From: an uncultured Clostridia bacterium
GTDB lineage: Bacteria; Bacillota; Clostridia; TANB77; CAG-508
Direction of reading: 5' to 3'
DNA: 64,000 bases
Assembly: GCA_947601495.1 (NCBI GenBank)
Contig: CANQGE010000001.1
Location: forward strand, 31,731 to 95,730
Shown here: piece by piece, positions 2,591 to 43,090 of the stretch
How positions within the stretch are numbered: the first letter of the stretch is position 1
Layout: each line of letters begins with the position of its first letter
Notes under the pieces: generated by a model
The model's input: the letters and a program-made list of their open reading frames with translations, nothing else
The model's database searches: none
Told to the model about the DNA's origin: nothing
Made by a program: the position numbers and the translations under genes

Positions 2591-3967
2591 CTAATATCTC
2601 CTGCCATAAGGGTCTGATGGTCCCAAAACATGTAGTTCTTCTTCATCTTCTTCGTCTTTACTTTGTGGTTTTTCTGCTGGTTTTTCTGTTGGTGTTTCTT
2701 CAGGTGTTTCTTCTTTTACTTCTTCTTCAGCTTCTGATTTTTCTCTTGCTTCTATTTTGTCCATTATTTCGTCTCTTTTGCCCATATCTGTTTCAATTTC
2801 TGATCTAATTGTAGGAAGTTTTAATCCATATTTATCAAATAATTTTAATCTATCATCATTGATTTCTTGCATTTTTTCGATTTTTTCTGCTTTTGAAAGA
2901 TTTGTAACATTTTTTATTGAATCTTGTTTATTTTCTAATTCTTCTAAGTTTTGTGCCAATAATTCCTTGTCTTCTCTTCTTAAGTCTCTAGGTTCAGTAA
3001 CTAAATCTGCAACTATTTGATGCCCGTCCATATCTTTATAATATACTTTCGTACCTTTATCTTCCGCATTATCAACTACAGAAGCAGTTTTATATTCATC
3101 CATTACTTTTGTTGCATCTTCATCATATCTTCTTTCATCTATAACTCTTTCACCTTGTACAAATACTATTCTGTCATTTCCTGTTGAAATATCTCCACTA
3201 GAAAAAGCTAAACAATAAACTGGTCCACCATTATCTTGTAATCCTGCTGTATCAATTAATTGATCTGAAATGCTAGAAGGATTTCTTGCTATTAAAACAT
3301 GTTTTAAAGTTGCACCTTCTCTTTCTTTTATTTCATCTACTTTATCTTTTACATTTTCTGGTATGTTTACTTCTTCTTCCTCTTTTTCTTCTTCTGAAAG
3401 TTCTGCATCTTTTTCCTTAGTTTCTTCTTCCTTACCTTTATCTCTTTCCTCTTCTTCTCTATCTATTTCTTTTACTTGAAGATTTGGATTATTTTCTTTT
3501 ATTTTTTTAATAGTTTCTTCTTCATTTTCGGGAATTAATGTATCTTCTGCTATTTGTTTTTCCATTTCTTCTGGGGAATCTGGAAATAATGCATTTTCGA
3601 CTTCTTCTACTGATACATTTGCTTCAACTGCATATTTAAATACTTGTTTTTTCATTCGTGGAGTTAGCATAAAATTTTGTGAGTTTTCATCATCACCAAT
3701 AAAATCAACAGCCATATCTTCACCTTTGTCATTTACAGTTAATATTTGTGTTTCTCCATTTGGTAACAATATTTGAACTTTTCCAATTTTTTCTACTGTT
3801 CCGTCTCTTTTTTGAATTTCTTTTACTTCTACTAAATCAATATTAGATGGATCTATATCTCTTACCCTCATAGTTTTTTTACCATCTGATGATACATATG
3901 TATCTGCATTTTCATAAACTTTTGCAAGTAAAAATTGTCTTTGTAAATAATTATCTATATCGTTCAT
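2591..3967 (-). CDS. hypothetical, highly acidic protein
   Basis: 458-aa ORF with an AAGGAGA RBS. It has long E/D/K-rich blocks, no signal peptide or TM segment, and no motif I recognise. Confidence 0.6.
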   Translation of the reverse strand: MNDIDNYLQRQFLLAKVYENADTYVSSDGKKTMRVRDIDPSNIDLVEVKEIQKRDGTVEKIGKVQILLPNGETQILTVNDKGEDMAVDFIGDDENSQNFMLTPRMKKQVFKYAVEANVSVEEVENALFPDSPEEMEKQIAEDTLIPENEEETIKKIKENNPNLQVKEIDREEEERDKGKEEETKEKDAELSEEEKEEEEVNIPENVKDKVDEIKEREGATLKHVLIARNPSSISDQLIDTAGLQDNGGPVYCLAFSSGDISTGNDRIVFVQGERVIDERRYDEDATKVMDEYKTASVVDNAEDKGTKVYYKDMDGHQIVADLVTEPRDLRREDKELLAQNLEELENKQDSIKNVTNLSKAEKIEKMQEINDDRLKLFDKYGLKLPTIRSEIETDMGKRDEIMDKIEAREKSEAEEEVKEETPEETPTEKPAEKPQSKDEEDEEELHVLGPSDPYGRRY

Positions 3968-4092: not shown

Positions 4093-4131
4093 ATAAAAAA
4101 ACCTAAATTGAAAAAACATCAATTTAGGTTT
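4093..4131 (-). terminator. rho-independent terminator after the 1135-aa gene
   Basis: Perfect 12-bp stem AACCTAAATTGA / TCAATTTAGGTT (4100-4111 / 4119-4130), followed by a U-run on the minus strand. Confidence 0.8.
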
Positions 4132-4136
4132 TATTT

Positions 4137-7100
4137 TTATAAGTTTTTATTGTATTTTGTTTTAGGATATAAATTATCACCTAATAGTTCTTCTTCTATT
4201 CTAGCTTCTTCTTTTTGCTTTTCTCTTTCTTCTTCTCTTTGCTTTCTTATTTCCTCTTGTTTTCTCATTTTTTCTTCTTTTAGTTTTTGTCTTTCAATTT
4301 TTCTTTTTTCAGCTTTTTCTTTTCTTAGTTTATTTCTTTCTTCCCTTAATTTTCTTTGTTCTTCTTGTTTTTCTTTTTTATCTATAGATAATATATTTTC
4401 CTCATCTTTTTCTATTTCATACATTCCAGAATTTTCTGTTTCTGCACTCTCAACATCAATATCGCTTTTACTATCGAATTTTTCTATAATGCTTTCATAA
4501 AATTGCCTATTTTCCATTGATTTGTTAAACTCTTCTTCAGTTTTAAATTTTGAATCAATTTCATATATTTTTGAGAAATGAATCATAGATAATTTATCTG
4601 TTATGTTTATTCTATTTGTAAGCCAAATATTATTTAACTTATATTCAAGTTCAATATTAGATTCTTTTAATTCAGCTATTCTTAATCTTTTACATCTTAA
4701 ATCATATTCTTCTGATTTTTCATCTGGAAGTCTATCATAATTTTTTGACATACAATAAGCATAAGTATCTGCTCTATTAGAAACTACTTTTTCTTTTATC
4801 CAAACAGAATCATCATAATCGCAAAGAGTTGTATAAACTAAGGTATCTATTCTTTGAGCTTGCCTTTTGGTTATACCATATAATCCCATTAAGCCTTGCA
4901 TTCTATCACGTATTAGTGAAGGAGAATAATGTTTTTTCTCAAATCCGTCGTTTTTATCTATTCCTCGTATAATTTTTTCTACAAATATTTTTTCACTAAA
5001 TACTCTACAATATCCCTCTTCTGCATCAACAAAAATTAATACTGCACCATTTTTTTTGTTTGTTTCTACATTTTTTTTATCTTTTTTATGTTCTTTTTTT
5101 AATTCTCTTCTCTCTGCTTTTGCTCTTTCTAATTCTCTTTTCTCTGTTTCTCTTCTTTCTGCCTCTTGTTTTTCTTTTTCACGTTTTTCTATTTCTCTTT
5201 TTTCTGCTTCTATTCTTTCTTGTTCTATTCTTTCATTCTTTTTTGCTTCTAATTCTTTATTGTTCTCTTTTAAAATAGTTTCATTTTTTTCTTTCTGAAT
5301 ATTTTTAAAATCATTCTTTTTATTTATTTCATTTTCATTTTGAAATTCATCAAAAGTTTCCTGACCTTCGTAAGTATCTGAATTATTTTCTTTCTCTACA
5401 TCTAAATTTTCATCTAAGCTGTCAAATGATAATTGTGTGTTTTCTTCAGTTTCAATGTTGTTTAGATATATTTTGTCAAATTCTTTTTCTTTTTTTCTTT
5501 CTTCTATTTTTTCTTTAATACCTAATCCAAAATTTACTGTACTTGTTTTTACTTTATTAAAAGAGTTACTTACTACAGCTACGGTTTTTTCTTTTAAATT
5601 TTTTAATGATTTTGCAATATTTTCAAAATAATTATTAACTTTAAAACTTGATTCTGCATTATTAACTCTATTAGAAGAATTATTTATTAAAACAATGTTG
5701 TTTACATTTGTTTTTTTAGGATTTTTATTATAAATATTATTTTTATCTACAATTTCAATTTCTGGAATTATTGTTTTTATACTATCTTCTATATTGATAA
5801 TTTTTTCTTTATTTTCATTATTAGTTTTATCGTTTAAGTTTTCTTTACTTTCTGCTTTTTGCTCTTCCTTTTTATTATCATTATCTTTTACTTCGTTTGA
5901 CTCATCTTTTTCTTCTTTTTTATCTTTATTTTTATTTTCAATTTTATTTTCTTTATCTTCTAACTTATTATTATCTAATTTTTCTACGATAACTTCTTCT
6001 TTATTTTCAGACTGCTTTTTCTGTTCTATTTTATCTATTTTTGCTGCCATAAGAAGTTTTTGTTTTTTCTCTTCTTGTTTTTCTTTCGCAAAATCTTTTA
6101 ATTTATTAATTAGATTTTTTAAATTTTCTATAATTTTAGAAACGTTTAATTTTAAAAATGAAAATACTTTAATAGAAGTTGTTTTTATGTCTTGGAAAGA
6201 TATTTTTCTTCTAAATTTAGTTTTGTTTATTATAATTCCCATTGGATTTCCACCAACATTTTGAATATCTTTCTTAGCTTTAAATAAATCCTCTTTTTTA
6301 GTTTTCTTATAGTCCGATACTATTATTGTTGAATTAACAGCTCTAGTTAAAATTAAAGAATTCATATTGTTTAACACAGAAGTTCCATCTATTAAAACTA
6401 AATCATAAAAAACACTTAAGTCTTTTATTAATTCTTGTAATCTTTCAGAAGTAAGCAATTCTGTTGAATTTGGTGGTACTGTTCCTGAAGTAATCAAATT
6501 TAAATTTTTTATTCCTGTTTCATTTATAAAATTGTTTGTAAGTTTTTTTATTTCCATTCCATTAGAATCTAAACTTGATAAGTAATTAGAAAATCCAAGA
6601 TTGTTTGGTATGTTAAATATTTTATTTTGTCTACCATTTTGCATATCTGAATCTATTATTATTACTTTTTTTCCACTTTCTGCAAAAATTACACCAAGAT
6701 TAGCTGTAATGTAACTTTTTCCTTCACCATCTAAAGGACTTGTTATAAGTATTATGTTTTTCTCTTTATTATTAACGTTTATAAATTGAATATTAGTTCT
6801 AAGATTTCTAAATGCTTTTAAAGTTATTGATTTGCTTCCTGAAGTAGTTGATATTAATTCATTTTTAATTTTATTTGATTTATTTTTTTTGCAATTTATT
6901 AAAGGAATTTCAATTAATTTTTTTAAATTTATTTCATTATCGATGTTCTCATTAATTTTAATATTTCTGTCTATAATCGCTACAGCAAAAATATAACCAG
7001 AGCTTACTAAAATACCAATTATAAGAGAAATAAACGCACATAATATTATTGAAATATTTGTTGTAACTTTATTTATATGAGGACTATCAACTATATATAT

Positions 7101-7544
7101 TTCTCTATTTTCATACATTTCATCTAGTTTATCTGAAAGAATATCTATCAATTTTTGGTTTTCTTTTATTGAATTATTTTCATCAGTATTTTTTACTTGA
7201 ATTTGAAATGTATCTGAATTTGAATTTATTTTTATATCTATGCCTTTTCTTAGTTCTTTATTGCTTAAATTCAAATTTAAATCATCTTTTATTTTTTGAA
7301 TAGAGGAATCACTTTTTAATAGTTCTTTAAAAGTATGTATAAGTTTGGAAGTAATTTCTATGTTTTCTCTACTTTCGCTTTGTCCATTTTCAGTTACTTC
7401 TGATTTTATTAATAAAGCTTTTGATACTGAAATATATTCTTTTTTACTTAAGCATAGAGAAAGAACTATACCAATAATTAGTATAGATATTACAATTAAT
7501 ATTACATGTATTTTCTTTTCTTTTAATTTTTCCAAAAATATCAT
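4137..7544 (-). CDS. fused Wzz-like chain-length module + BY (bacterial tyrosine) kinase P-loop domain with long C-terminal extension
   Basis: 1135-aa ORF with two TM segments (aa ~12-32 and ~165-190) bracketing a Wzz-like loop. BY-kinase motifs follow: Walker A SPLDGEGKS, Walker A' VIIIDSDM, Walker B DLVLIDGTS. After that come ~650 aa of K/E/N-rich low complexity, one globular region (aa ~830-1035) and a charged coiled-coil tail. Confidence 0.7.
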   Translation of the reverse strand: MIFLEKLKEKKIHVILIVISILIIGIVLSLCLSKKEYISVSKALLIKSEVTENGQSESRENIEITSKLIHTFKELLKSDSSIQKIKDDLNLNLSNKELRKGIDIKINSNSDTFQIQVKNTDENNSIKENQKLIDILSDKLDEMYENREIYIVDSPHINKVTTNISIILCAFISLIIGILVSSGYIFAVAIIDRNIKINENIDNEINLKKLIEIPLINCKKNKSNKIKNELISTTSGSKSITLKAFRNLRTNIQFINVNNKEKNIILITSPLDGEGKSYITANLGVIFAESGKKVIIIDSDMQNGRQNKIFNIPNNLGFSNYLSSLDSNGMEIKKLTNNFINETGIKNLNLITSGTVPPNSTELLTSERLQELIKDLSVFYDLVLIDGTSVLNNMNSLILTRAVNSTIIVSDYKKTKKEDLFKAKKDIQNVGGNPMGIIINKTKFRRKISFQDIKTTSIKVFSFLKLNVSKIIENLKNLINKLKDFAKEKQEEKKQKLLMAAKIDKIEQKKQSENKEEVIVEKLDNNKLEDKENKIENKNKDKKEEKDESNEVKDNDNKKEEQKAESKENLNDKTNNENKEKIINIEDSIKTIIPEIEIVDKNNIYNKNPKKTNVNNIVLINNSSNRVNNAESSFKVNNYFENIAKSLKNLKEKTVAVVSNSFNKVKTSTVNFGLGIKEKIEERKKEKEFDKIYLNNIETEENTQLSFDSLDENLDVEKENNSDTYEGQETFDEFQNENEINKKNDFKNIQKEKNETILKENNKELEAKKNERIEQERIEAEKREIEKREKEKQEAERRETEKRELERAKAERRELKKEHKKDKKNVETNKKNGAVLIFVDAEEGYCRVFSEKIFVEKIIRGIDKNDGFEKKHYSPSLIRDRMQGLMGLYGITKRQAQRIDTLVYTTLCDYDDSVWIKEKVVSNRADTYAYCMSKNYDRLPDEKSEEYDLRCKRLRIAELKESNIELEYKLNNIWLTNRINITDKLSMIHFSKIYEIDSKFKTEEEFNKSMENRQFYESIIEKFDSKSDIDVESAETENSGMYEIEKDEENILSIDKKEKQEEQRKLREERNKLRKEKAEKRKIERQKLKEEKMRKQEEIRKQREEEREKQKEEARIEEELLGDNLYPKTKYNKNL

Positions 7545-7639
7545 TTTTTTCCTCTCTTATCTACTAAATAAAAAATAAAAGACGCAAATAAAAATTATTC
7601 ACATCTTTTGTATGGTATTTTCTTATAAAATTCTTAATC

Positions 7640-7668
7640 ATTATAGCAAACTTTCTTTAAAAATTCAA
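7640..7668 (-). promoter_or_regulatory. sigma-A type promoter for the Wzz/BY-kinase gene
   Basis: On the minus strand: TTGAAT (rc of 7663-7668), a 17-nt spacer, then TATAAT (rc of 7640-7645), about 90 nt upstream of the start codon. Confidence 0.45.
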
Positions 7669-7783: not shown

Positions 7784-7810
7784 AAAAAGCACACTGTAAA
7801 GTGTGCCTTT
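7784..7810 (-). terminator. rho-independent terminator after the 142-aa surface protein gene
   Basis: Stem GCACACT / AGTGTGC with a 4-nt loop, followed by UUUUU on the minus strand. Confidence 0.75.
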
Positions 7811-7834: not shown

Positions 7835-8263
7835 TTAAACATTATAATCTGATACTTTCTTATAAGCATATAATGCTGAAGCAACAAGTGCAATTGTTAC
7901 AAATACCATAGATGATCCATTTCCTGCATATGGTAATGAAGAACTTACTTTATTTGTGTTTGAATTTGTTGAATTAGTATTACTAGAAGTATTAGTGTTT
8001 GTGTTGTTTACTGTATTATTAGCACTTGGTGAACCAACTGTTGCTGGAATAAGTGTTCCGTTTGTGTTTGAATTTGTGTTCTCATCTGTAGCTTCATTAT
8101 TAACTGCTCCTGCTTCTTCGTTTGTTGAAGTTGTATTTGTATCTGCAACTAATTGTTGACCTTCTGTAGCAGAAACTAATGAACTTATACTAGCAAATGT
8201 GAAAGTTATTAATACGATAAGTACTAAACTTACTAAAAATTTTTCTTTTCTTAATTTAACCAT
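7835..8263 (-). CDS. small secreted N/T/S-rich protein with LPxAG-type C-terminal sorting signal
   Basis: 142 aa with an N-terminal signal/TM segment (LVSLVLIVLITFTFASISSLVSA) and a low-complexity Asn/Thr/Ser spacer. The C-terminus reads LPYAG + hydrophobic stretch (SSMVFVTIALVASALYAY) + KK, the layout of a sortase substrate. Confidence 0.6.
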   Translation of the reverse strand: MVKLRKEKFLVSLVLIVLITFTFASISSLVSATEGQQLVADTNTTSTNEEAGAVNNEATDENTNSNTNGTLIPATVGSPSANNTVNNTNTNTSSNTNSTNSNTNKVSSSLPYAGNGSSMVFVTIALVASALYAYKKVSDYNV

Positions 8264-12150: not shown

Positions 12151-13083
12151 CTATTCAAACATTTTATTTATAGCCTTTTCAAAAACATTTTTTGCAATTT
12201 TATATCCAGAAGGAACTATTTCTGAAAATTTATTCATGCAAACATTTCCATTTATTTCCATAACAAAAATTTTTTCATCAGATGTAACTGCTATATCAAT
12301 ACTTGCAAAATTAATGTTTATAGCATTTCCTGCTTGAATTGCAACTTTTTTAATTTCTTCAATGTATTTATCATTTTCATCAATTAAAATTGGTTCTGCT
12401 CCGTTATTTAAATTATGTTTCCAGCATACTGTAACTTCTTCATTTTTTAAAGGTATTTTATTTAAATCTAAATCTTTACAAATTGGAAGATTCATTTTAT
12501 CATATTTAATGCTAATTAATTCACCTATATTATGAACTCCATCGCCTACAACATATGCTTTTTTCTTTTTATATGCATATATTACTTCACCGCTTAAAAA
12601 TATAACTCTATATTCATAGTCTATATCCATATATGGACAGGCGCTTAAAGTATCATTATCTTCAAATAGTTTAGAAACAATTTTTCTTACTTCATCTTCA
12701 GTTGAGCAATAATATACATCTTTTCCCTCATATGAATTATTTGCTTTTATTACCAATTTATTATTTGAACTTTTAAGCAAATTAATTGCTTCATCTAAAA
12801 ATTTTTGATTATAATATGCACTTCTAGTTTTAGGATTAAATATTATTTTATGTGGTATAGTTGATATATTGTTTTCATGTAGCACTGCATAAGTTGCAAA
12901 TTTATCTGATGCAATGTTATATGATGTTGTACTATTTAAATCCAATTGATATCCTATTATGTGTCTCTTCTTTCCATCTTTTATTAGTTCTTTAATCCAG
13001 CCATAAGAAAGTTCTTTTTGGGTAATATTTTTTTCATTACAAATCTCATTAATTATTTTATAAAATGGTTTATGCTTTTCCAT
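12151..13083 (-). CDS. ATP-grasp fold protein (RimK/ligase-like), function unknown
   Basis: 310 aa. The C-terminal half shows an ATP-grasp-like pattern (..EYRVIFLSGE.., ..HNLNNGA.., ..IDIAV...IFVMEINGN..). AAGAGGA RBS. Confidence 0.5.
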   Translation of the reverse strand: MEKHKPFYKIINEICNEKNITQKELSYGWIKELIKDGKKRHIIGYQLDLNSTTSYNIASDKFATYAVLHENNISTIPHKIIFNPKTRSAYYNQKFLDEAINLLKSSNNKLVIKANNSYEGKDVYYCSTEDEVRKIVSKLFEDNDTLSACPYMDIDYEYRVIFLSGEVIYAYKKKKAYVVGDGVHNIGELISIKYDKMNLPICKDLDLNKIPLKNEEVTVCWKHNLNNGAEPILIDENDKYIEEIKKVAIQAGNAININFASIDIAVTSDEKIFVMEINGNVCMNKFSEIVPSGYKIAKNVFEKAINKMFE

Positions 13084-13167: not shown

Positions 13168-15204
13168 TTATTTTAATTTAGTTACAATTTTTAGAATTTC
13201 AGAATCGCTCCAAGCCTGTGAGAAAGTTCCACCAGGGTTAAAAGGTAATTCTGCATCATATACTTCTGAAAGAGTTCCAACTCCTTGAGAATTATTTATT
13301 TCCACTTTAAAAGTATTGTAAACTTTTTCTATAAATTTTTCGTATTCTATTTTTAATTTTTCTTTTTCTAATCTATCTTTTTCAAATTCTATTATATTCT
13401 TAAAGCTATCATTATATAGTCCTAAAAGCCAAATCCAAATTGTTCCTTGATGATATGCTGAATCTCTTTCAAAAACATTTCCTTCATAATGTGGAATATA
13501 TCCTTCCTCATCTTTTGCAAGGGTTTTTAATCCATACTTAGTAAGCAATTTACTTGTTACTGTTTTAAATATTGTTTTTCCAATTTCAGAAGAAGGTTTT
13601 ATAACTGGATATGTTGTTGATATTGCAAATAATTGATTTGGTCTAATTTTTTCATCTCCAATAACATCATATAAAGACTTTTTCTTTTTATTATAAAATT
13701 GTTTTTCAAATTCTTTCTGATGCTCTACTGCTGTTTTTTTATAAATGTCAGCTAGTTCTTTTTCATCAAATCTTTTTGCTAAATTTTCCAAAGTTTTTAA
13801 TGCATTATAGTAAAGTGCATTTAATTCAACAACTTTACCATTTCTAGGTGTAACTGCTTTGTTTCCAATTTTAACATCCATCCATGTATTTTGGGTGTCT
13901 GGAGTTCCAGAGCATAAAAGTCCATCATTTGCAATATAGATGTTGTTATTATCTTGATTAATTCCTGATTGATAATATTTAATTATTTCTTTTAACTTTT
14001 CATATATATTATTTTTTATGAAATCATAATCTTTTGTATATTGTAAAAATTTATTTACTTGCTCAAATAGTAATAGTGATGCATCTGCACTATTATATAG
14101 AGGTCTATTATCAAAACCAGAGTAACCGTTTGGAACTAGTCCAAATTTAACATCTCTAGTAAAAGTTAATAATATTTCTTTTGCTAAATCATATCTTTTA
14201 GTTATTAAAAATGCTCCTTCAAAGGCAATTAATGAATCTCTTCCCCAATCTAAAAACCATGGAAATCCTGCTATAATTGAATGTGTTCCAAATGAAGGTC
14301 TATTTATAACAAAGCTATCTAAGGCAATTACAAGGTCTTTTACTAATTCGTTGTAGTCTTTCTCTTTTTTAGTTAATTTGCTTTTTTCTTTTAATAGTTT
14401 TGTGTTATTTACAACAGTTTCAATTCTTTTTATTTCATTTTGTATTACTTTATTTGCATCAACTTGTTCTGTATTATCTTCTAATGAAGCTACGAAAGTT
14501 ATTTCTTTAGTTTCACGAGGTTTAATTTTTATTTCATATCTACCAGGAATAATTAAATTTTCTTTTGGGAAAAATCCTCTTTCTTCCTCTTTTATATAAA
14601 ACATATCTCTAAATACATCATTATAATGTTTTATGTATTCGCCTTCATTAGAAAAAATATAAAGAGGGAAGCTTGCATTTCCATCTATTTCTAATCTAAC
14701 TTTATTATTATCATTTTTTTGTTTTAACTCAAATTCGTGGTTTGTAGTCATTTGATGGAAGTCTCTAAAATTAACAATAGGCGTTAATTTCAAAAGAGAC
14801 TCTTTTTTTCCATTTTTTATTTTATATTGTACGACTACTGTATTTCTTCCATATATCATTGATATAGTTTTCACTATTTTTACATCTTCAATTTTATAAG
14901 TGAAAACAGGCAAAAATTCTTTTTCAAATGATTCTAAATTTTTATATCCTTCTGAAATATAGTTTTCACATACATTTGTAAATAAGTTGTACTCATCTCG
15001 ATCAATTAATATGCTTTCATCAAGTTTTGAAAGTAATAAATGCCTTTGTGCTGGTGGATTTAAAGGTGCTACTAGTAGTCCATGATATCTTCTAGTATTT
15101 GCTCCAATAACTGTTGATGAAGCAAAACCTCCTATTCCATTTGTTATAATCCATTCTTTATTTAAAGCATTTTTTAAATCGATTTGTTTTTTTAATAGTT
15201 TCAT
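13168..15204 (-). CDS. glycogen debranching enzyme (amylo-alpha-1,6-glucosidase, archaeal/GDE_C type)
   Basis: 678 aa. N-terminal GDE_N-like (ITNGIGGFASSTVIGANTRRYHGLL) and C-terminal (alpha/alpha)6 GDE_C-like (GFPWFLDWGRDSLIA, ...YHQGTIWIWLLG...). Confidence 0.85.
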   Translation of the reverse strand: MKLLKKQIDLKNALNKEWIITNGIGGFASSTVIGANTRRYHGLLVAPLNPPAQRHLLLSKLDESILIDRDEYNLFTNVCENYISEGYKNLESFEKEFLPVFTYKIEDVKIVKTISMIYGRNTVVVQYKIKNGKKESLLKLTPIVNFRDFHQMTTNHEFELKQKNDNNKVRLEIDGNASFPLYIFSNEGEYIKHYNDVFRDMFYIKEEERGFFPKENLIIPGRYEIKIKPRETKEITFVASLEDNTEQVDANKVIQNEIKRIETVVNNTKLLKEKSKLTKKEKDYNELVKDLVIALDSFVINRPSFGTHSIIAGFPWFLDWGRDSLIAFEGAFLITKRYDLAKEILLTFTRDVKFGLVPNGYSGFDNRPLYNSADASLLLFEQVNKFLQYTKDYDFIKNNIYEKLKEIIKYYQSGINQDNNNIYIANDGLLCSGTPDTQNTWMDVKIGNKAVTPRNGKVVELNALYYNALKTLENLAKRFDEKELADIYKKTAVEHQKEFEKQFYNKKKKSLYDVIGDEKIRPNQLFAISTTYPVIKPSSEIGKTIFKTVTSKLLTKYGLKTLAKDEEGYIPHYEGNVFERDSAYHQGTIWIWLLGLYNDSFKNIIEFEKDRLEKEKLKIEYEKFIEKVYNTFKVEINNSQGVGTLSEVYDAELPFNPGGTFSQAWSDSEILKIVTKLK

Positions 15205-15224: not shown

Positions 15225-16805
15225 TTATTTCTTTCGTTTACCGTCATCTGCTCTTTTTGATTTAGTTTTATTAAGTTCTCTTTGAGTTTGCTCTAGTTTT
15301 TCAATTTGATTTGCAACTTTTCTATTTTCAAGTATTCTAGCATCCGTAGTTTGAATAGATTTAACTCTTTCACTATATTTTTCTTTAAACTTACTCTCTC
15401 TATTTTTTCCTTCTTGATGTTTTGATGTGTTTTGATTAAATATTCCTTTTTTAGAAACCTTTACTAATGCTTTTTGCTGTTTCTGTTGTAATTTTTTCTG
15501 TTCTTTTAATACAGATTGTAATAATAAATATTGAGTATCATTTTGCATGTCATGGAATTTAAGATCGTTACAAACCATTTCTATTATTATTGAAGCAACA
15601 ATATCTGAATTGTGCATAATTTTTCCATCTTTAATACATGACATATTTCTTTGAATAAGTTTTACATTAAATTCACTTAGTTTCTTATTATCTATATCTA
15701 CTAAATCTGAACCTTCTTTATTATATTTTCTTATGTATTCTGGTATAACTTCTCCAGTATCTGCCAAGCAATAGTCTATAATTCCACTACCAATATGTTC
15801 TTGTAAAACTCTTAAGTGATCTGATACTGCAAAGTCATCTGTTTGACCAGGTTCTGTCATAATATTAGAAATATAATATTTTGTAGCTTTGCTATCTTTT
15901 ATTTCTCTTGCTATATTCCTTATTAATAGGCTAGGTAGAACATTTGTATATAAACTACCAGGGCCAATAATTATAACATCCGCACTTGCTATTGCTTCTA
16001 ATACTCCTGGTGCTGGTTTGCAATTTGAAGGAGAAATATATATTCTATTTATTCTTTCTTTTTTACTTGCTACTATTTCTGCTATTTTATCTTTTTGATC
16101 AATAGTTGTTCCATCAGCAAGTTCTGCATGTACACTAATTTCATCAAGAGTAGCAGGAATAACTGTTCCAGAAATATTTAATACATCTTTGCTTTTTGAA
16201 ATTGCTTCTGCTATATTTCCATATATTTCAGTCATAGCAACAAAGTAAATATCACTAAAATTTAAACCTCTTAAACGTTCATGTCTAAAGTTTAAGTCCA
16301 TAAGACTTTTCATTTCGTTTTGATTACTTGAAATAGATATTAAAGCATCTTTAATATCTTTTCTTGCATTCATAGAAGTGTTTCCATAATCAGACATAGT
16401 TACTATTGCTGTGATATTATTAGTATAATGCTTAAATCCTTCGATTATATTATTTAAACCTTGTCCACCGCCTATAATAACAACTTTTGGTCCTTCTTCA
16501 TAAACATTTCTATTAAATATTAAAGATTTTATATTAGATTGAGCTTGTCTTCCTTTTTCAGAAGTGTTATTTGCCTCTATAATTAGCTCTAAACTTCTTT
16601 TTTGTATAAAAATAACACTAGTAACAATTGCAATAAATCCAATAATAAATATAACTATTGTTTTTCCTAATTCGAAGAAAGATATTTCTTCTGATGTTAA
16701 TATTTTTGCTATTCCATAACAAGTAAGTACAACACCAACAATTATTAAAAGAATCCATCTTTTTACTTTTGTACTTGCCTTAAACCATTCAAAAAAAGAT
16801 TTCAT
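15225..16805 (-). CDS. yvcK: YvcK/CofD-family (gluconeogenesis factor-like) protein with N-terminal membrane anchor and basic C-terminal tail
   Basis: 526 aa with two N-terminal TM segments. The UPF0052/YvcK core is present (VVIIGGGQGLNN...TAIVTMSDYG...IIIGPGSLYTNVLP). The last ~90 aa are K/Q/E-rich. Confidence 0.8.
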   Translation of the reverse strand: MKSFFEWFKASTKVKRWILLIIVGVVLTCYGIAKILTSEEISFFELGKTIVIFIIGFIAIVTSVIFIQKRSLELIIEANNTSEKGRQAQSNIKSLIFNRNVYEEGPKVVIIGGGQGLNNIIEGFKHYTNNITAIVTMSDYGNTSMNARKDIKDALISISSNQNEMKSLMDLNFRHERLRGLNFSDIYFVAMTEIYGNIAEAISKSKDVLNISGTVIPATLDEISVHAELADGTTIDQKDKIAEIVASKKERINRIYISPSNCKPAPGVLEAIASADVIIIGPGSLYTNVLPSLLIRNIAREIKDSKATKYYISNIMTEPGQTDDFAVSDHLRVLQEHIGSGIIDYCLADTGEVIPEYIRKYNKEGSDLVDIDNKKLSEFNVKLIQRNMSCIKDGKIMHNSDIVASIIIEMVCNDLKFHDMQNDTQYLLLQSVLKEQKKLQQKQQKALVKVSKKGIFNQNTSKHQEGKNRESKFKEKYSERVKSIQTTDARILENRKVANQIEKLEQTQRELNKTKSKRADDGKRKK

Positions 16806-17915: not shown

Positions 17916-19157
17916 TTAACTAATTGTTTCTTGTTTTACTTCTTTAATGTCTATATCTCTAACGTGCTCAATTTTTTCCCATTTTGTATTAGGTTTTACA
18001 ATACATTTAATGTTTATAGCTATCCAAGAACCTAAGAATAGTGGATAACAGATAATTGCACCAAGCATAGGTTTAATTTTTCTTTTATCTAATGCCATAA
18101 TAGCTGTTCCTGTAATAACTGGTAAAATAAATGTTGCAATTAAATATCTTCCATAGTTTCCTATTAATTCAGCAGCTGTCATTTCAGAACCTAGATATAA
18201 TAAGCCATTTATTCCTAATAAAACAAAAGTTAATATCATCATAGGAATTCCAAACATATATAATAAACCATCAAAGTTCATAAGAGTTTTATGTTCTACT
18301 ACACCTTTTGCTAAATCTTTAGTGTAGTTTTTCATACATTGAAGATGTCCAACTGTCCATCTAGAACGTTGTGACCAACTTTGAGCAAAATGAACTGGTT
18401 GTTCGTCATATACTATTGCATCTGTTGCCCATCCTATTTTTCTTCCTTTTGCAATATTTATTAAAGAAAATTCAATATCTTCTGTTAAAGTAACTGTTTG
18501 CCATCCATTAGGTTTTATTAAATCAAATTTAACCATAAAACCTGTTCCATTTATTAATGGTGATAATCCTAAATTATATCTTGCTAAGTGATAAAATCTG
18601 TTCATCATCCAATAAAAAATTGCATATCCTCCGGCAATCCAAGAATCTGTAGGATTTTTAATATCTCTATATCCTTGAACAATTTCTTCACCTTGGCAAA
18701 GTTTTTTATTCATATTTTTCAAAAAGTTTTTATCAACAATATTATCTGCATCAAATACGCAAAAAGCATCATAATCTGCATTTTCTTCTATTTTTTGTTT
18801 TAAAAACCAATTTAAAGCAAATCCTTTAGTTTTGTTTGTTTCATCAAATCTTTTTAGGACTTTTGCTCCTGCTTCTTTAGCAATTTCAGCTGTTGCATCT
18901 GTGCAGTTATCTGCAATAACAAATATATCATAAAGATTTTCTGGATAGTCTTGAGCTTTTAGGCTTTCAACTAAATTTTTAATAACTGTTTCTTCGTTAT
19001 GTGCTGGAACTATTGCCATAAATTTGTGGTTTTTTTCAATTAGTAATTTTTTATCTTTTAGTTTTATTAATGAACAAAAACTAACTACAATTTGATATGC
19101 CCAATATATAGTTATTAACCATATCAAAGCTTGTTGTAAAAGATATAAATACTTCAT
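17916..19157 (-). CDS. membrane-embedded processive family-2 glycosyltransferase (polysaccharide synthase-like)
   Basis: GT2 signatures: VPAHNEE, IADNCTD, DxD (VFDADN) and the QxxRW motif (QRSRW). TM segments lie at the N-terminus and in the C-terminal third. I prefer the ATG at 19157 (AAGAGG RBS 6 nt upstream) over the TTG at 19175. Confidence 0.8.
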   Translation of the reverse strand: MKYLYLLQQALIWLITIYWAYQIVVSFCSLIKLKDKKLLIEKNHKFMAIVPAHNEETVIKNLVESLKAQDYPENLYDIFVIADNCTDATAEIAKEAGAKVLKRFDETNKTKGFALNWFLKQKIEENADYDAFCVFDADNIVDKNFLKNMNKKLCQGEEIVQGYRDIKNPTDSWIAGGYAIFYWMMNRFYHLARYNLGLSPLINGTGFMVKFDLIKPNGWQTVTLTEDIEFSLINIAKGRKIGWATDAIVYDEQPVHFAQSWSQRSRWTVGHLQCMKNYTKDLAKGVVEHKTLMNFDGLLYMFGIPMMILTFVLLGINGLLYLGSEMTAAELIGNYGRYLIATFILPVITGTAIMALDKRKIKPMLGAIICYPLFLGSWIAINIKCIVKPNTKWEKIEHVRDIDIKEVKQETIS

Positions 19158-19423
19158 TTTTAACCTCTTTTCCAATCGTTTGTATTATATAGATTTTTCC
19201 ATATCTATACACCTTTTTCATTATAGCATTTTGTGGAAAATTTTTCAAGTTTTTTTGTAAAATTTAATAATTTCTAAAATTCAACATTTTCAAGGGTTTT
19301 CATACTTTTATTATACTTTTTTTAAAGAATTTTATTATCCAATTATATGTAAAATTTTTAAATTTATTTATTGCTTTATTTTATTAGTTTTTTGTATTAT
19401 ATTTCATTATTTGTAAAAAAATG

Positions 19424-22478: not shown

Positions 22479-23120
22479 TTAATCTAATTCTTCGCGTTCT
22501 TTTTCTTTTTTTGCTATATATAAAACTAATTCAACCACAGCAATAACTGTCATTAAGTTTACTATTACAGGTGATACTGGGATTCTTACTATTGCTATTA
22601 GGCTTGCTATAGCAAGTTCTGTTAAAGCAACTAGTACAAATAGTTTTCCTAACAATTCAAATGTATTCATTTTTCTAAATCTAATAACTAAATATGCAAC
22701 AATTACTACTACTGAAATAATTACTGGTTTTATATATGGTCTAATTAAATCTCTTATTCTTACATTTGAAACTTTCATTCTTTCAATATTTTCTGCTTCA
22801 AGCTCTGTTCCATATTTTTCATTTATTTTAGTTACTAAATTGTTTCTTTCTTCATCTGTGATAGATTGTGAGCTTATATTAAATGAATCTCTAAAGAAAT
22901 CTACACTTCTTACAACTACTGCTTTTTTTCCAAAAACTTCTTTACATATATCTTTTACTTCTTTTATATTTGTTTCTTTTCCTATAAATATATTTATTGA
23001 TTCATGTTGTTCTAACATTAAATATACATTAAATCCTTTCAATGCTACTACAACTAGTCCTGCAACTATTAAAAGAATCAAGCCCAATATAATTATTTTT
23101 TTGCTTCCATTTAATTCCAT
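22479..23120 (-). CDS. SecF-like membrane protein (divergent, only 4 predicted TM segments)
   Basis: Start at MELNGSKK (ATG 23120, GGAG RBS 7 nt upstream). Layout is TM1, a ~100-aa loop, then 3 TM segments. It sits at the syntenic position downstream of queA-tgt and directly after the SecD-like gene. The canonical GYSxNDTxVxFDRxRE motif and the last two TM segments are missing. Confidence 0.45.
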   Translation of the reverse strand: MELNGSKKIIILGLILLIVAGLVVVALKGFNVYLMLEQHESINIFIGKETNIKEVKDICKEVFGKKAVVVRSVDFFRDSFNISSQSITDEERNNLVTKINEKYGTELEAENIERMKVSNVRIRDLIRPYIKPVIISVVVIVAYLVIRFRKMNTFELLGKLFVLVALTELAIASLIAIVRIPVSPVIVNLMTVIAVVELVLYIAKKEKEREELD

Positions 23121-23145
23121 TGTTTTTCTCCTTTTATAAACTATT

Positions 23146-24573
23146 TTAAACATTTATAATAAACAAATAATTGTATAATGCTTGAAGGAATAATCCCCAG
23201 AATAGAATCATTCCTATACTGCTTATAACCACACTAGACATAAATGTAAATATTATAGAAATTGCACAAATAGGTATAATTGCTAAATACATTTTTTTCA
23301 TAGTTTCTAATAAAGCTATTTTCTTCATTTGGTTAGATTCTAATCTCTTTAAATATTTGATAACAAAAATATAATTTATAATTACTACAGCTACAGTAGC
23401 TATCAAAGCATTTACTGTTATTGCAACATTTGTATATCTTAATATAAGATTTAATAATCCTAAATATCCTAAAGTTAGTATAGAAGCTTTTAATCCTTCT
23501 AATTTAAATCTAATTATTAAATATAAACTTACAACAGCTATAGCTACTATAGTTACTATTTCTGCTACTAATTTTACATCATTAGTTAAAACAGAATTAA
23601 TACGATTATCTGAGCTCAATGTGTATTTTAAAGGTAAAGCATCATCATTTAAAATGTCTACTATCATTGATACACTTTGTGCAACTTCTTTATATTCATC
23701 AAAATCTTCTGTTGCTTGTCCCATAGGAATTTGTAACACGCCTGTTGCTAGTTCTTCGCCGAAATAAGTTGTACTAATAACTTGGTCGTCCATCTTTATA
23801 GAAATATAATTTGTTGTTTCTGTTCCATCTTCTGCTGTAACAGTTTGATATTTATTACTAATATCTTTTAATTTATCTTTTCCATCTTTTTCAAATGTTA
23901 GTTGTAAATATGCTTGGTATGAATTATTATTATTTGATGCTAACATTTTAGCTTCTTTTAAAGTTGAATCATCCATTAATATTAATCCATTTTGATAATC
24001 GATAATTTCAATTTTTCCAACTGTAGAAACTAAGGCTTGTTCAAGTGATAAATTTTCATTATCTGGTAATTCTATAATTATTTCTCCAGTAATACTATCT
24101 AGTCTTATATTATATTCATATACATCCATTTTTTCTAATCTAGATTGAATTACTTTTTTTGCTTTTTCGAAGTTTTCTTTTGTTATACTAGAATCTTCAT
24201 TTGCTTTTATTGTTCTTGTTTCTTTAGTATAGCCTTCTACTTCTGTCTTATCTTCTTCTGGTTCTTCAGTTTTTTCTGCTGATTGATCATTGGTATCTAA
24301 AGAAATTTCTGTATTTGAAGGAGTTTCTTCTTTTACTTCTCCTGCATAATTTCCACCAGCATCTACATATATTTCTTTTTCTTCTTCTGAGTTATCTAAT
24401 ACATAATGTAATTCTCTTTTTCCATCTAGCTCCATTCCTAGATTAAAATCTGGTAATATGTTTCTCCAAATTCCATAATTCTTAACATATAGTCCAACAA
24501 AAGCTACTACTGCTATTAATATTGCACCTAATAGTATTGTTATTGTTTTTACTGTTTTTAAATTCTTTTCCAA
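23146..24573 (-). CDS. SecD-like membrane protein (divergent)
   Basis: 475 aa: TM1, a large extracytoplasmic domain and 5 C-terminal TM segments. LGMELDGKRE resembles the SecD LGLDLxGG start. ISIKMDDQVISTTYFGEELATGVLQI resembles the P1 (IAIVLDGKVISAP...I.GG) segment. The TM4 motif MAVDANV is replaced by AVVIINY. Confidence 0.5.
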   Translation of the reverse strand: MEKNLKTVKTITILLGAILIAVVAFVGLYVKNYGIWRNILPDFNLGMELDGKRELHYVLDNSEEEKEIYVDAGGNYAGEVKEETPSNTEISLDTNDQSAEKTEEPEEDKTEVEGYTKETRTIKANEDSSITKENFEKAKKVIQSRLEKMDVYEYNIRLDSITGEIIIELPDNENLSLEQALVSTVGKIEIIDYQNGLILMDDSTLKEAKMLASNNNNSYQAYLQLTFEKDGKDKLKDISNKYQTVTAEDGTETTNYISIKMDDQVISTTYFGEELATGVLQIPMGQATEDFDEYKEVAQSVSMIVDILNDDALPLKYTLSSDNRINSVLTNDVKLVAEIVTIVAIAVVSLYLIIRFKLEGLKASILTLGYLGLLNLILRYTNVAITVNALIATVAVVIINYIFVIKYLKRLESNQMKKIALLETMKKMYLAIIPICAISIIFTFMSSVVISSIGMILFWGLFLQALYNYLFIINV

Positions 24574-26037: not shown

Positions 26038-27621
26038 TTAATTTGATGTATTTGAATTTGAAACTTTATTAGTTGTATTTTCAGTATTTGTAGAAGAATT
26101 TTTGTCAGTAGTTGTATTTGAAACTTTATTTTCATTAGAAGTTGTTTCACTTTCAGTATCGCTATTTTTTTCTTCATTCTCTTCTTTTTCATCTATGTTT
26201 ATAAGATTTTGTTCTTCTAAGAAATCTCTTAAAGGTCTTGCCTGTCCATCATGTTCCATATAATATGTTGTTTCTCCTGATTTTGTAATTGCATATATTT
26301 TAGTGCAAACACAAGGTAATACTATTCTTTCCTCAGTTATATCATATATTCCATATAGTTCATCTTTCTTTATAACAATTCCTTTTATTCCAACAGATGG
26401 TGGTATAAGAAGAACATTTTCTTCATGTCCTGATGTAGTTTCTTTTGAACCAGTTTTATATCCTAAATCATCTATTGTAATTGATAATATTAAATCTCCT
26501 TCTGTATTACATAATCCATATAAATCATCTTTTTGAACAGGTATAACTTCTCCAAAAAGTAATGATGAATTTTCAATATCGTCTAGTTCAAATTCAGAAG
26601 TATCAAAACCTATTGCATCATTTTCTGCATGAATAAGAGTTTTTCCATTTCTATTTACAACTCCAAATTCTCCATCTTTTTCTACTAAATAAAGTTGTTT
26701 TTCATCATCTAGCAAAGAAATATTTTCAAATTCTGACGGAGCAATTACTGTTCCACCATCTGAGTTTAATATTCCCATTGTTCCATTTGATGCAGTTACA
26801 TAAAATTCTTTTACATTTTGAACAAATTTTATATCATTATATTTTACACCTATTACTTCTCTGCCATTTTCGCTTAAAGAAATTACGCCATATAAATTAT
26901 CTTTTGAACCTTCTGTACCTTTTGAAACTATAACAAAATCATACAAAATTGATTTTAAGTTTTCATAATATCCACTTATTTGTGTATATCCAAGTTGAGC
27001 AATAGAAGATTTTGCTTGTTTAACTATATAATCTAAAGTATAAAATCTATATCTATATGGTTTCCAATCAATTCTTAAATTAAGCATTTCTGCAGCATCT
27101 TCTTTTGAAACATATATTTTTCCATCAATAAATTTTAAAGGATTTATTAAATCAAAGTTTTCGCAATAACCACTTTTATTTTTTGTAGTTACAACTATAT
27201 CTGCGATAGTAATTTTTTGACTAGTTGAAACCGTTGAAATATATTTTTGATATTTATTTTCATTAACTGACATTGCAACTATTTCAAAATCATTTTGTAA
27301 ATAGCAACTATCAGCATTTTCATTATATTTATTATATTCACCTTGATTATATGTATAGTTTAATAGAGTGGCTAATTCATTAGCATTTAAATATACTGTT
27401 CCTTCAATTTCTTTATAGAAATCATCTGGAAAGCTTTGTTGCTGATTATTATCTATAAATACTTTGTCTGTAACTGAATCTTGATATTGTAAAAGTAGAA
27501 TCATTGCAACAAGTCCTACTATTAAAAGTGCACATAATACTATAGAAAGCATAACTCCTTTTCTGTTTCTAGTATTTTTTTCCATTTTTTCTCTGTACAA
27601 ATCGCTTTCTTCTAAGTTCAT
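26038..27621 (-). CDS. membrane-anchored repeat protein (WG/KWG-like repeats) with N/T/S-rich tail
   Basis: 527 aa with one N-terminal TM segment (GVMLSIVLCALLIVGLVAMILLL). Aromatic-Gly units recur (LYGVISLSENGRE, EFGVVNRNGK, LYGLCNTEGD, LYGIYDITEE). The C-terminus is low complexity. Confidence 0.55.
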   Translation of the reverse strand: MNLEESDLYREKMEKNTRNRKGVMLSIVLCALLIVGLVAMILLLQYQDSVTDKVFIDNNQQQSFPDDFYKEIEGTVYLNANELATLLNYTYNQGEYNKYNENADSCYLQNDFEIVAMSVNENKYQKYISTVSTSQKITIADIVVTTKNKSGYCENFDLINPLKFIDGKIYVSKEDAAEMLNLRIDWKPYRYRFYTLDYIVKQAKSSIAQLGYTQISGYYENLKSILYDFVIVSKGTEGSKDNLYGVISLSENGREVIGVKYNDIKFVQNVKEFYVTASNGTMGILNSDGGTVIAPSEFENISLLDDEKQLYLVEKDGEFGVVNRNGKTLIHAENDAIGFDTSEFELDDIENSSLLFGEVIPVQKDDLYGLCNTEGDLILSITIDDLGYKTGSKETTSGHEENVLLIPPSVGIKGIVIKKDELYGIYDITEERIVLPCVCTKIYAITKSGETTYYMEHDGQARPLRDFLEEQNLINIDEKEENEEKNSDTESETTSNENKVSNTTTDKNSSTNTENTTNKVSNSNTSN

Positions 27622-32484: not shown

Positions 32485-32516
32485 AAGAAGTAATGTTATT
32501 TCATTACTTCTTTTAT
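32485..32516 (+). terminator. terminator hairpin after tmcAL, overlapping the 3' end of convergent spoIIP
   Basis: Perfect 11-bp stem AAGAAGTAATG / CATTACTTCTT (32485-95 / 32502-12) with loop TTATTT, followed by a short T-rich run (TTATT). Confidence 0.6.
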
Positions 32517-33650: not shown

Positions 33651-33712
33651 ATTTTTCCTCACTTACAAACAAGTATATTAATTTGAAATACAAATTATTA
33701 CTTAATTTAAAT

Positions 33713-42745: not shown

Positions 42746-43090
42746 TTTCCTCCTTAGTAATTCCCTGTAAAATATTAGTATAAGTCCAATAATAATTAAT
42801 ATTATATCTTTAATGTAAAAAAACTTCAATAGAAAAAATAAAATAAATTTTTTTTAAATTTTTTGTAATATAATCTTATAATTGTAACTAAAATGTAATA
42901 GAAATACGCGATTTTTTTGTCAAAAAATGTTTACTTTTGTTTTGGTTTTATATAAAATATATGAAGAATTAAGAAAATAATTTTTGAATTTTTTTCTTAA
43001 ATAATCAAGATTTGAAATAATTTTTTTTAAATTCAAAACTACTTGACAAAATTAAAATAACAAAAGATATGAAAGGAGCACTTTTTTACA

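Follow-up and report, generated by a model that had tools for sequence, protein, structure and literature searches.

Bacterial tyrosine kinases (BY-kinases) are defined by a cycle of phosphorylation of a group of clustered tyrosines at the C-terminus (Y-cluster) and ring disassembly. At the sequence level they are recognised by the Walker A, A' and B motifs together with the Y-cluster (PMC3245071, PMC4007543, PMC9800525; BYKdb / Jadeau 2008). In CapB of Staphylococcus aureus, Mg-ATP is bound by K55 and S56 (Walker A), D77 and D79 (the DxD of Walker A') and D157 (Walker B), the adenine and ribose are held in place by N211 and R212, and K82 on one side and P159-P160 on the other enclose the substrate tyrosine from the adjacent subunit, the two prolines being part of the 'hhhhDTPP' motif termed characteristic of BY-kinases; conserved contacts of the CapB octamer are E23, R26, R29, E133 and R81 (PMC2422856). 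The kinase and its transmembrane (TM) partner are separate proteins in 98.7% of the Firmicutes BY-kinases of one survey (PMC4007543), and fused (P-type) proteins numbered 281 of 5880 in Bacillota (PMC9800525). Members with other roles have also been described: EcpK of Myxococcus is a scaffolding BY pseudokinase with none of the three Walker motifs (PMC12004946), GumC of Xanthomonas has been termed a 'pseudo-BY-kinase' (PMC9800525), and in Streptococcus pneumoniae CpsC/CpsD recruits the capsule machinery to the divisome (PMC10233549) while CpsD interacts with ParB (PMC4574921). Here we describe a gene at positions 4137 to 7544 of a 64,000-nucleotide stretch (the window) of contig CANQGE010000001.1, from an uncultured Clostridia bacterium of the family CAG-508, which encodes a CapA/CpsC-like membrane module, a BY-kinase-like P-loop domain and a long C-terminal extension in a single chain.

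The protein keeps the nucleotide site of a BY-kinase, has lost most of the residues that handle the substrate tyrosine, and ends in a short invariant peptide. Judging from its sequence, there is about an even chance that it is a BY-kinase-derived ATP-binding membrane scaffold which does not run the canonical Y-cluster autophosphorylation cycle. The parts of the gene are as follows, with residue numbers in amino acids (aa) and structural assignments from an AlphaFold2 (AF2) model whose local confidence is given as pLDDT (predicted local distance difference test).

4137..7544, minus strand: whole open reading frame (ORF), 1135 aa, ATG start; CapA/CpsC-like module, BY-kinase-like P-loop domain and 690-aa extension
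7449..7514, minus strand: TM helix 1, aa ~11-32; Kyte-Doolittle peak and AF2 helix 11-32
7059..7448, minus strand: short extracytoplasmic alpha/beta domain, an F-type (CapA/CpsC-like) polysaccharide co-polymerase (PCP) module, aa ~33-162; pLDDT 70-85
6966..7058, minus strand: TM helix 2, aa ~163-193; hydropathy and AF2 helix 165-193
6828..6965, minus strand: juxtamembrane segment homologous to the CapA C-terminal activator peptide, aa 194-239; aligns with CapA-Ct of the chimeras 4jlv and 3bfv
6201..6827, minus strand: BY-kinase-like P-loop domain, aa 240-448; pLDDT 85-93
6045..6065, minus strand: short motif KQKLLxE, aa 494-500, inside the otherwise variable post-kinase helix; K496 in 47/48, L497 in 46/48 and L498 in 48/48 sequences
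5070..6002, minus strand: variable K/E/N-rich spacer, aa 515-825; disordered segments and long helices 639-698 and 750-822 (ER/K-type)
4449..5051, minus strand: conserved globular C-domain, aa ~832-1032; new domain family, beta-meander and helices
4182..4391, minus strand: long charged helix, ER/K-type single helix or coiled coil, aa 1052-1121; AF2 helix 1052-1123, pLDDT 70-83
4140..4208, minus strand: invariant C-terminal peptide EEARIEEELLxDNLYPKTKxNKxL-COOH, aa 1113-1135; N1124-K1130 invariant, including Y1126

To place the P-loop domain among BY-kinases, we compared it with curated models and known structures. TIGR01007 (polysaccharide biosynthesis tyrosine autokinase) matches aa 244-445 with 147.1 bits against a cutoff of 108.05, and the best PDB match is the S. 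aureus CapA-Ct/CapB chimera 4jlv (E=1.8e-38, aa 189-450). The residues expected of such a domain are G275-K276-S277 in Walker A, D298 and D300 in the DxD, the Walker B aspartate D386 and the adenine-binding asparagine N440. We then counted the CapB-numbered positions over 119 aligned family members. The nucleotide site is kept: K55, S/T56, D77, D157 and N211 are found in 119/119 members and D79 in 106/119, and the R212 position is K or R in 109/119. The general Walker A signature ...G-K-[ST] is therefore present, G275, K276 and S/T277 being invariant in the 119 relatives. Since the Walker A lysine, the DxD and the Walker B aspartate are all retained, the protein is not a dead pseudokinase of the EcpK type, and the domain is predicted to bind ATP and probably to hydrolyse it. 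Of the two features that mark EcpK, the absence of Walker residues is not seen here, whereas the absence of a tyrosine-rich tail is, though one invariant tyrosine lies far toward the C-terminus.

The positions that contact the substrate tyrosine tell a different story. Walker A' in its full form, phi4-D-x-D-x-R, is incomplete: D298 (119/119) and D300 (106/119) are kept, but the arginine position is Q in our protein, and across the family the corresponding R81 position holds R in 7/119 members (N48, I20, K10). Extended Walker B, phi4-D-x-x-P, is likewise incomplete, with D386 in 119/119 but DGTS in place of DTPP. At the tyrosine clamp, P159 is found in 6/119 (mostly T), P160 in 25/119 (mostly S) and K82 in 3/119 (S, N or T otherwise). 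As for the ring contacts, E23 occurs in 0/119, its position being K, while R29 is kept in 108/119 and E133 in 117/119. A Y-cluster is also missing: a 12-aa window with at least three tyrosines within 80 aa of the core was found in only 2/119 members, and our protein has no tyrosine between aa 446 and 604. By sequence, then, the protein clears the BY-kinase profile threshold and lacks the Walker A' arginine, the Walker B prolines and the Y-cluster. The first-pass annotation of this DNA had reported intact Walker A, A' and B motifs, which is correct for the generic ATPase residues and incorrect for the A' arginine (7/119) and the B prolines (6/119 and 25/119); it had also seen no tyrosine-rich segment after the kinase domain, and the family-wide count agrees. 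The signature of deviant-Walker-A ATPases of the MinD/ParA type is absent: the P-loop reads T-S-P-x-x-x-E-G-K-S, not K-G-G-x-x-G-K-[ST], and the MinD and ParA models score 42 and 25 bits versus 147 for the BY-kinase model.

The N-terminal part of the protein has the topology of a class 2 co-polymerase (PCP-2), with hydropathy peaks at aa 9-36 and 159-192 that correspond to two TM helices flanking the outer domain, N-terminal to the BY-kinase domain. TIGR01006 aligns to aa 4-214 over model positions 14-222 of 226 (62 bits, below its cutoff of 296), and PF02706 (Wzz) reaches 16.7 bits on our protein, below its cutoff of 25.5; a precomputed PF02706 match is present on most family members. Pfam finds AAA_31/CbiA and a weak Wzz match on the ORF and nothing past residue 470. 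The Wzc model NF008568 aligns from TM helix 2 onward only (model positions 407-707), which points to a membrane module of the short kind found in Firmicutes. The alignment to the chimera spans both the CapA juxtamembrane peptide, in which P214 is invariant, and the kinase core, which makes the protein a natural fusion of the CapA-CapB type. That modulator and BY-kinase are joined in one ORF had been noticed from the DNA alone, and the TIGR01006 and TIGR01007 matches and the chimera alignment bear it out. Such an organisation is unusual for Firmicutes, though not unique.

Comparison with the described systems shows which parts are shared. With CapA/CapB (F-type PCP-2b; structures 2ved, 3bfv and 4jlv) the protein shares the short outer domain between two TM helices, as well as the Walker A lysine, the DxD, the Walker B aspartate, the adenine asparagine and a PPN(S/P)xELL motif. 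It differs from them in being one polypeptide instead of two, in the absence of K82, P159, P160, R81, E23 and a YYAYYG-type cluster, in its 690 extra residues with a new domain and an invariant end peptide, and in the position of its gene, which lies outside any capsule operon and has no CapC-type phosphatase nearby. Wzc and Etk of Escherichia coli (P-type PCP-2a) resemble it in carrying the TM module and the kinase in one chain (kinase-domain E ~1e-24 to 1e-26), but their large helical periplasmic domain, Y-cluster and Wza/Wzb partners are absent here. EcpK, HfsB (Caulobacter) and GumC also have the BY-kinase fold without a phosphorylatable tyrosine tail and are proposed to act by protein-protein interaction (PMC12004946, PMC9800525); they belong to polysaccharide loci and carry neither a long extension nor a C-domain or conserved end peptide, and in contrast to EcpK our protein keeps all residues for nucleotide binding and hydrolysis.

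The extension comprises 690 residues after the kinase core, and its linker consists of 20% K, 18% E and 14% N. A helix is predicted at aa 450-514, directly after the kinase-like domain; the KQKLLxE motif that it carries may represent a second linear motif. Outside its helices the spacer has pLDDT <35, and its columns show an identity of 0.05-0.29 with many gaps; it varies in sequence and in length, yet is retained under purifying selection. The C-domain, on the other hand, is confidently modelled, both within the full-length protein (aa 835-1032, pLDDT 83-95) and alone with 31 homologues (pLDDT 84 overall and >90 over residues 20-200; predicted template modelling score, pTM, 0.79), and its predicted fold consists of a five-strand meander, then helices and a further strand. 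No entry of Pfam, NCBIfam or PHROG matches it, a profile of the domain found no PDB sequence at E<=10, and Foldseek returned only E >=0.45 against PDB and >=0.2 against BFVD, so that no structural relative was detected. The first-pass annotation had proposed structure prediction and a Foldseek search for this ~200-aa region and had named a match to a known domain as the result that would count against its reading; the model is confident and no known domain was matched.

After the C-domain follows the charged helix (26% E, 20% K, 11% R), and the chain ends with the peptide that bears the tyrosine, which in our protein reads EEELLGDNLYPKTKYNKNL. The aligned sequences all (48/48) share the seven consecutive residues NLYPKTK (N1124-K1130), and the motif can be recognised in practically all full-length relatives. 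By mean column identity the end peptide, at 0.78-0.86, is more strongly conserved than any other stretch; the kinase domain has 0.73-0.78 and the linker 0.05-0.29. Its invariant tyrosine, Y1126, lies 10 residues from the C-terminus and ~680 aa past the kinase core, and the peptide is unstructured (aa 1122-1135, pLDDT <50) and undocked in the AF2 monomer model. We found the end peptide in all loci of metagenome-assembled genomes (MAGs) that include the 3' end of the gene (16/17), and outside the orthologues the motif does not occur in ~400 kb of related sequence; when the 45-aa tail was searched against the database, no more than 5 candidates came up, each a short fragment, so that this search was uninformative. 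The general layout of the extension as first described (about 650 aa of K/E/N-rich low complexity, a ~200-aa globular region and a charged tail) holds, at ~690 aa, but the invariant NLYPKTK at its very end had been overlooked. A globular domain, a long variable spacer and a short, highly conserved terminal peptide, which would serve for docking, are also the arrangement of the FtsZ C-terminal peptide and the SSB tail. To neither of these does the end peptide show any sequence relationship.

A search of 5.8 billion proteins returned at least 248 relatives at E<1e-10, and the 120 listed are mostly 850-1200 aa long. BLAST by segment over these 120 found the kinase in 120/120, the N-terminal module in 111/120, the C-domain in 118/120, the tail in 110/120 and the middle linker in 5/120. 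When the C-domain profile was run exhaustively against 1.84 billion cluster representatives, only 101 proteins were recovered, 42 of which, at E<1e-30, are the BY-kinase-like family. In GTDB genomes the domain is found in 17 loci, all in MAGs that come from uncultured Clostridia of the gut (samples from rabbit, roe deer, sheep, chicken and human), several of which are labelled Candidatus Scatovivens, a genus of the GTDB order TANB77 and family CAG-508 that is almost entirely uncultured (PMC13106387). Orthologues are intact in 15 of the 17, the other two (L011 and L015) running into the contig end. Compared with a rabbit MAG (L001) whose housekeeping genes are 96-99% identical to those of the window, the ratio of nonsynonymous to synonymous substitution rates (dN/dS) is 0.06 for the kinase, 0.08 for the tail, 0.10 for the TM helices and ectodomain, 0.17 for the C-domain and 0.20 for the linker; all modules are under purifying selection. 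The protein had been called an orphan, a term that does not hold against at least 248 database relatives and 17 syntenic MAG loci, except in the sense that the gene lies outside a capsule locus. The survey of the fusion architecture, also suggested at that time, revealed a conserved family which is uncharacterised and confined to an uncultured clade. In the literature we found nothing on the end motif, on capsule genes of CAG-508 or on the fusion architecture.

These data also dispose of the idea that the ORF is an artefact, with separate cpsC, cpsD and downstream genes joined by a frameshift or in assembly, or else a pseudogene in decay. Only the unusual length and the low-complexity middle region would point that way. 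The ORF is intact and single, at ~850-1140 aa, in independent MAG loci whose samples came from rabbit, deer, sheep, chicken and human, its module order is common to more than 100 database proteins, and every module is under purifying selection. Stop codons are frequent in the window because its DNA has 26% GC, and an open frame of 1135 codons would be expected by chance at only ~1e-51. We consider an artefact ruled out for practical purposes.

Beyond the BY-kinase-like family, the C-domain search uncovered a second tier of ~50 proteins (E 1e-14 to 1e-4; P0192-P0247, loci L018-L021) with a related domain at the N-terminus. Their layout is N-terminal domain, charged linker, TM helix, P/T-rich spacer and a conserved ~130-aa extracellular C-terminal domain, a topology like that of MapZ, and Pfam gave no match in the 10 that were scanned. 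The genes are chromosomal and lie on low-GC (25-31%) contigs in an uninformative context; the window has no second-tier paralogue. As the related domain is cytoplasmic in these otherwise unrelated single-pass membrane proteins too, it appears to be a portable, membrane-tethered cytoplasmic module.

The flanks of the gene contain the following signals.

7551..7556, minus strand: ribosome-binding site GAGAGG, 6 nt ahead of the ATG at 7544; read from the sequence
7640..7668, minus strand: promoter-like site TTGAAT-17-(TG)TATAAT, ~95 nt upstream of the ATG; a consensus match only, 10/12 plus the extended -10 TG
4098..4132: terminator-like hairpin with a perfect 14-bp stem, directly past the stop codon of the ORF and ahead of the promoter-like site of the next gene
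7789..7806: terminator-like GC-rich hairpin with a T run, after the upstream gene, separating the ORF from that gene (sec142)

With a promoter-like site of its own and hairpin terminators on both sides, the gene looks monocistronic from its sequence. An Rfam scan of the flanks found no riboswitch or other regulatory RNA at E<=1, and PADLOC gave no match and no membership in a defence system. The source databases give the gene no name; the sole annotation there is the generic 'capsular exopolysaccharide synthesis family protein' from JGI.

All neighbours are on the same strand: tmk, metG, acidic458, the ORF, sec142, ychF, sigH, rny, an ATP-grasp gene, a glycogen debranching enzyme gene, CofD/YvcK, murB, a family 2 glycosyltransferase (GT2) gene and pnp. 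Wherever the contigs of the related loci reach, the order ATP-grasp, rny, sigH, ychF, sec142, BY-kinase-like gene, acidic458, metG, tmk is strictly kept; the housekeeping proteins are 83-99% identical across loci and the BY-kinase-like protein 43-88%. Our scan of the window covered 13 neighbours within ~14 kb and 20 larger ORFs at 22-50 kb, the latter being housekeeping, glycogen and sporulation genes, and stopped at 50 kb. Among these ORFs there is no phosphatase, flippase, polymerase or priming transferase, and neither they nor the genes matched in the +/-10 kb flanks of the 17 loci include a locus of the Wzx/Wzy type. The absence of CpsB/PTP, flippase, polymerase and priming transferase genes next to the ORF had been remarked on at first sight, as had a lone GT2 about 10 kb away as the nearest polysaccharide gene; both observations stand, and the GT2 (17916-19175) adjoins murB. 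Because the position of the gene is fixed among housekeeping genes, the operon context offers no clue to the process in which it takes part.

Two neighbours of no obvious function flank the gene.

7835..8263, minus strand: upstream neighbour sec142, 142 aa; signal peptide, N/T/S-rich region, KLPYAG motif, TM segment and YAYKKVSDYNV tail
2591..3967, minus strand: downstream neighbour acidic458, 458 aa, acidic; no known family

In 15 related loci sec142 lies directly upstream. Its NTNTN-type low-complexity region is variable, while KLPYAG(S/T), which is sortase-like, and the C-terminal tail YAYKKVSDYN(V/I), with three tyrosines, are invariant; invariance of the tail is unusual for a sorting signal, and the gene adjoins a BY-kinase-like gene that has no Y-cluster of its own. 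A homologue of acidic458 is found at the same position in 12/17 related loci; it has conserved blocks LPNGE..G.DMA, TPRM.KEI and V.CL.F and its own promoter-like site (4030-4002), and no Pfam, NCBIfam, PHROG or PADLOC entry matches it. A functional link of either protein to the BY-kinase-like protein is unproven.

Elsewhere in the window, the CofD/YvcK-family protein (15225-16805, minus strand, 526 aa) matches its Pfam domain at aa 108-388 only and has ~107 extra aa N-terminal and ~138 C-terminal to it, and the ATP-grasp protein (12151-13083, minus strand, 310 aa), which adjoins rny in related loci, is partially similar to RimK and to the ATP-grasp region of cyanophycin synthetase. Glycogen genes are scattered at 13168-15204, 40176-41765, 41801-42829 and 43091-44377 (archaeal-type debranching, GH57 branching, DUF4912 and GT4/GT5 synthase-like). 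Two adjacent ORFs of 224 and 475 aa (22479-24573 and 26038-27621, both minus strand) have no Pfam match, and a nearby 527-aa protein matches WG_beta_rep only. Sporulation genes of the window are sigH, spoIIP (32496-33662) and gpr (47410-48288), and from these the CAG-508-like host appears to be a spore-former.

The scaffold reading fits the pattern of conservation because the nucleotide residues are invariant while the residues for the substrate tyrosine and the Y-cluster are gone. In this model the P-loop domain would serve as a membrane-anchored oligomeric scaffold that is regulated by ATP; a ring such as those of CapAB or Wzc would be possible, though less certain. The ~690 cytoplasmic residues would form long flexible or rod-like arms presenting two recruitment elements, the ~200-aa globular domain and the invariant DNLYPKTK peptide, and the latter would dock onto a highly conserved cytoplasmic partner. 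Its probable role would be the coupling of an envelope process (such as glycopolymer or cell-wall assembly) to a cytoplasmic one, in parallel with CpsC/CpsD, which organises capsule synthesis at the divisome. CpsC/CpsD is the closest functional analogy for such a membrane hub, being an F-type PCP/BY-kinase pair that serves as a spatial organiser (PMC10233549, PMC4574921), although CpsD carries a phosphorylated tail of YGx repeats, lacks an extension and is encoded in the cps operon alongside the CpsB phosphatase. The first-pass annotation had likewise suggested that an ATPase of the BY-kinase type may have been recruited as a membrane scaffold; the retained ATP site, the loss of the tyrosine machinery and the precedent of EcpK and GumC speak for it, while its premises of an orphan with intact Walker motifs were wrong in detail and the scaffold role, like ATPase activity, oligomerisation and the process served, is something we infer. 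Several points weigh against it. Two of the five conserved CapB ring contacts (E23 and R81) are replaced, which makes ring formation uncertain; the AF2 monomer model is uninformative on docking of the tail; all family members come from uncultured organisms; and the catalytic DxD is kept together with an invariant tyrosine 10 residues from the C-terminus, so that the protein could still be a tyrosine kinase.

This last point leads to the main rival, an autokinase with a displaced acceptor, in which the P-loop domain would phosphorylate Y1126 in cis or in trans and thereby switch the oligomeric state or partner binding, with the 650-aa insert tethering the acceptor tail to the kinase core. The invariant tyrosine lies in an unstructured extreme C-terminal peptide, in the same place as the acceptor tyrosines of BY-kinases, and these acceptors vary in number and spacing among the enzymes (PMC2422856); the Walker A lysine, DxD and Walker B aspartate are conserved; the second Walker A' aspartate, proposed to recognise the substrate tyrosine (PMC9800525), is kept in 106/119; and the TIGR01007 score is above the curated cutoff. 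Still, the enzyme-side tyrosine clamp of CapB (K82, P159-P160) is replaced in almost all members, there is a single invariant tyrosine and no cluster (a second position is Y in 16/48 only), no tyrosine phosphatase gene is found among the ORFs scanned, and the tail is undocked in the AF2 monomer. Moreover, invariance over NLYPKTK and EEELL suits a docking motif better than it does Y-tails, whose conservation is loose, and we hold this explanation to be possible but unlikely. A less probable view still is that of an ordinary PCP-2 co-polymerase for a glycopolymer that is otherwise encoded at another place in the genome, with the extension as a lineage-specific decoration of little functional importance. 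The TM-ectodomain-TM module is indeed conserved and CpsC-like, GT2 and murB are ~10 kb away, and BY-kinase genes outside operons ('orphan CDs') are known (PMC4007543, PMC9800525). A mere decoration is hard to reconcile with a C-domain and tail conserved at or above the level of the kinase domain and dN/dS <=0.20 in all modules, and an ordinary role with a fixed housekeeping position in 17 MAG loci, never beside polysaccharide genes, or with the absence of the Y-cluster phosphorylation cycling on which canonical function depends (PMC12004946).

It is more doubtful again that the protein is a membrane-anchored positioning ATPase like ParA or MinD, whose C-domain, as a remote RNase H-like or ASKHA-like fold, would bind nucleic acid or a cytoskeletal protein and link the membrane to the nucleoid or the divisome, for instance in division or sporulation. 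BY-kinases are structurally ParA/MinD-like and CpsD binds ParB (PMC4574921), weak MinD matches exist, the host appears to form spores (sigH, spoIIP and gpr in the window), and the second-tier relatives have a MapZ-like topology. The signature lysine of the deviant Walker A is absent, however, and the BY-kinase model scores 147 bits versus <=42 for MinD/ParA. A bolder reading, which we regard as speculative and about as unlikely as the displaced acceptor, is a new kind of membrane signalling hub specific to TANB77/CAG-508: a BY-kinase-derived ATPase ring with up to eight long arms, each bearing the structurally new domain and the invariant DNLYPKTK peptide, which would be a tethered single-tyrosine phospho-switch or a dock for a core machine of the cell such as the divisome, nucleoid or sporulation apparatus. 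In a variant of it, the invariant three-tyrosine cytoplasmic tail of sec142, YAYKKVSDYNV, would be the kinase substrate in trans.

A C-domain family and a terminal motif in a BY-kinase/PCP-2 derivative, confined to an uncultured gut clade, are new; none was described in the literature searched. By keeping the ATP site and dropping the tyrosine machinery, the protein offers a natural experiment on the BY-kinase ATPase core apart from autophosphorylation, a question opened by recent work on a 'BY pseudokinase'. The C-domain adds a new domain family without detected structural relatives that occurs in membrane-tethered proteins of two different architectures. In practical terms the protein is of moderate value, as the cytoplasmic region can be expressed heterologously while the host has no genetic system. 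For CAG-508, an abundant uncultured gut clade of little-known cell biology, the gene is a conserved, lineage-marking one, and if the hub reading were true, envelope assembly would be linked to the cell cycle in these bacteria in a way unseen in cultured ones.

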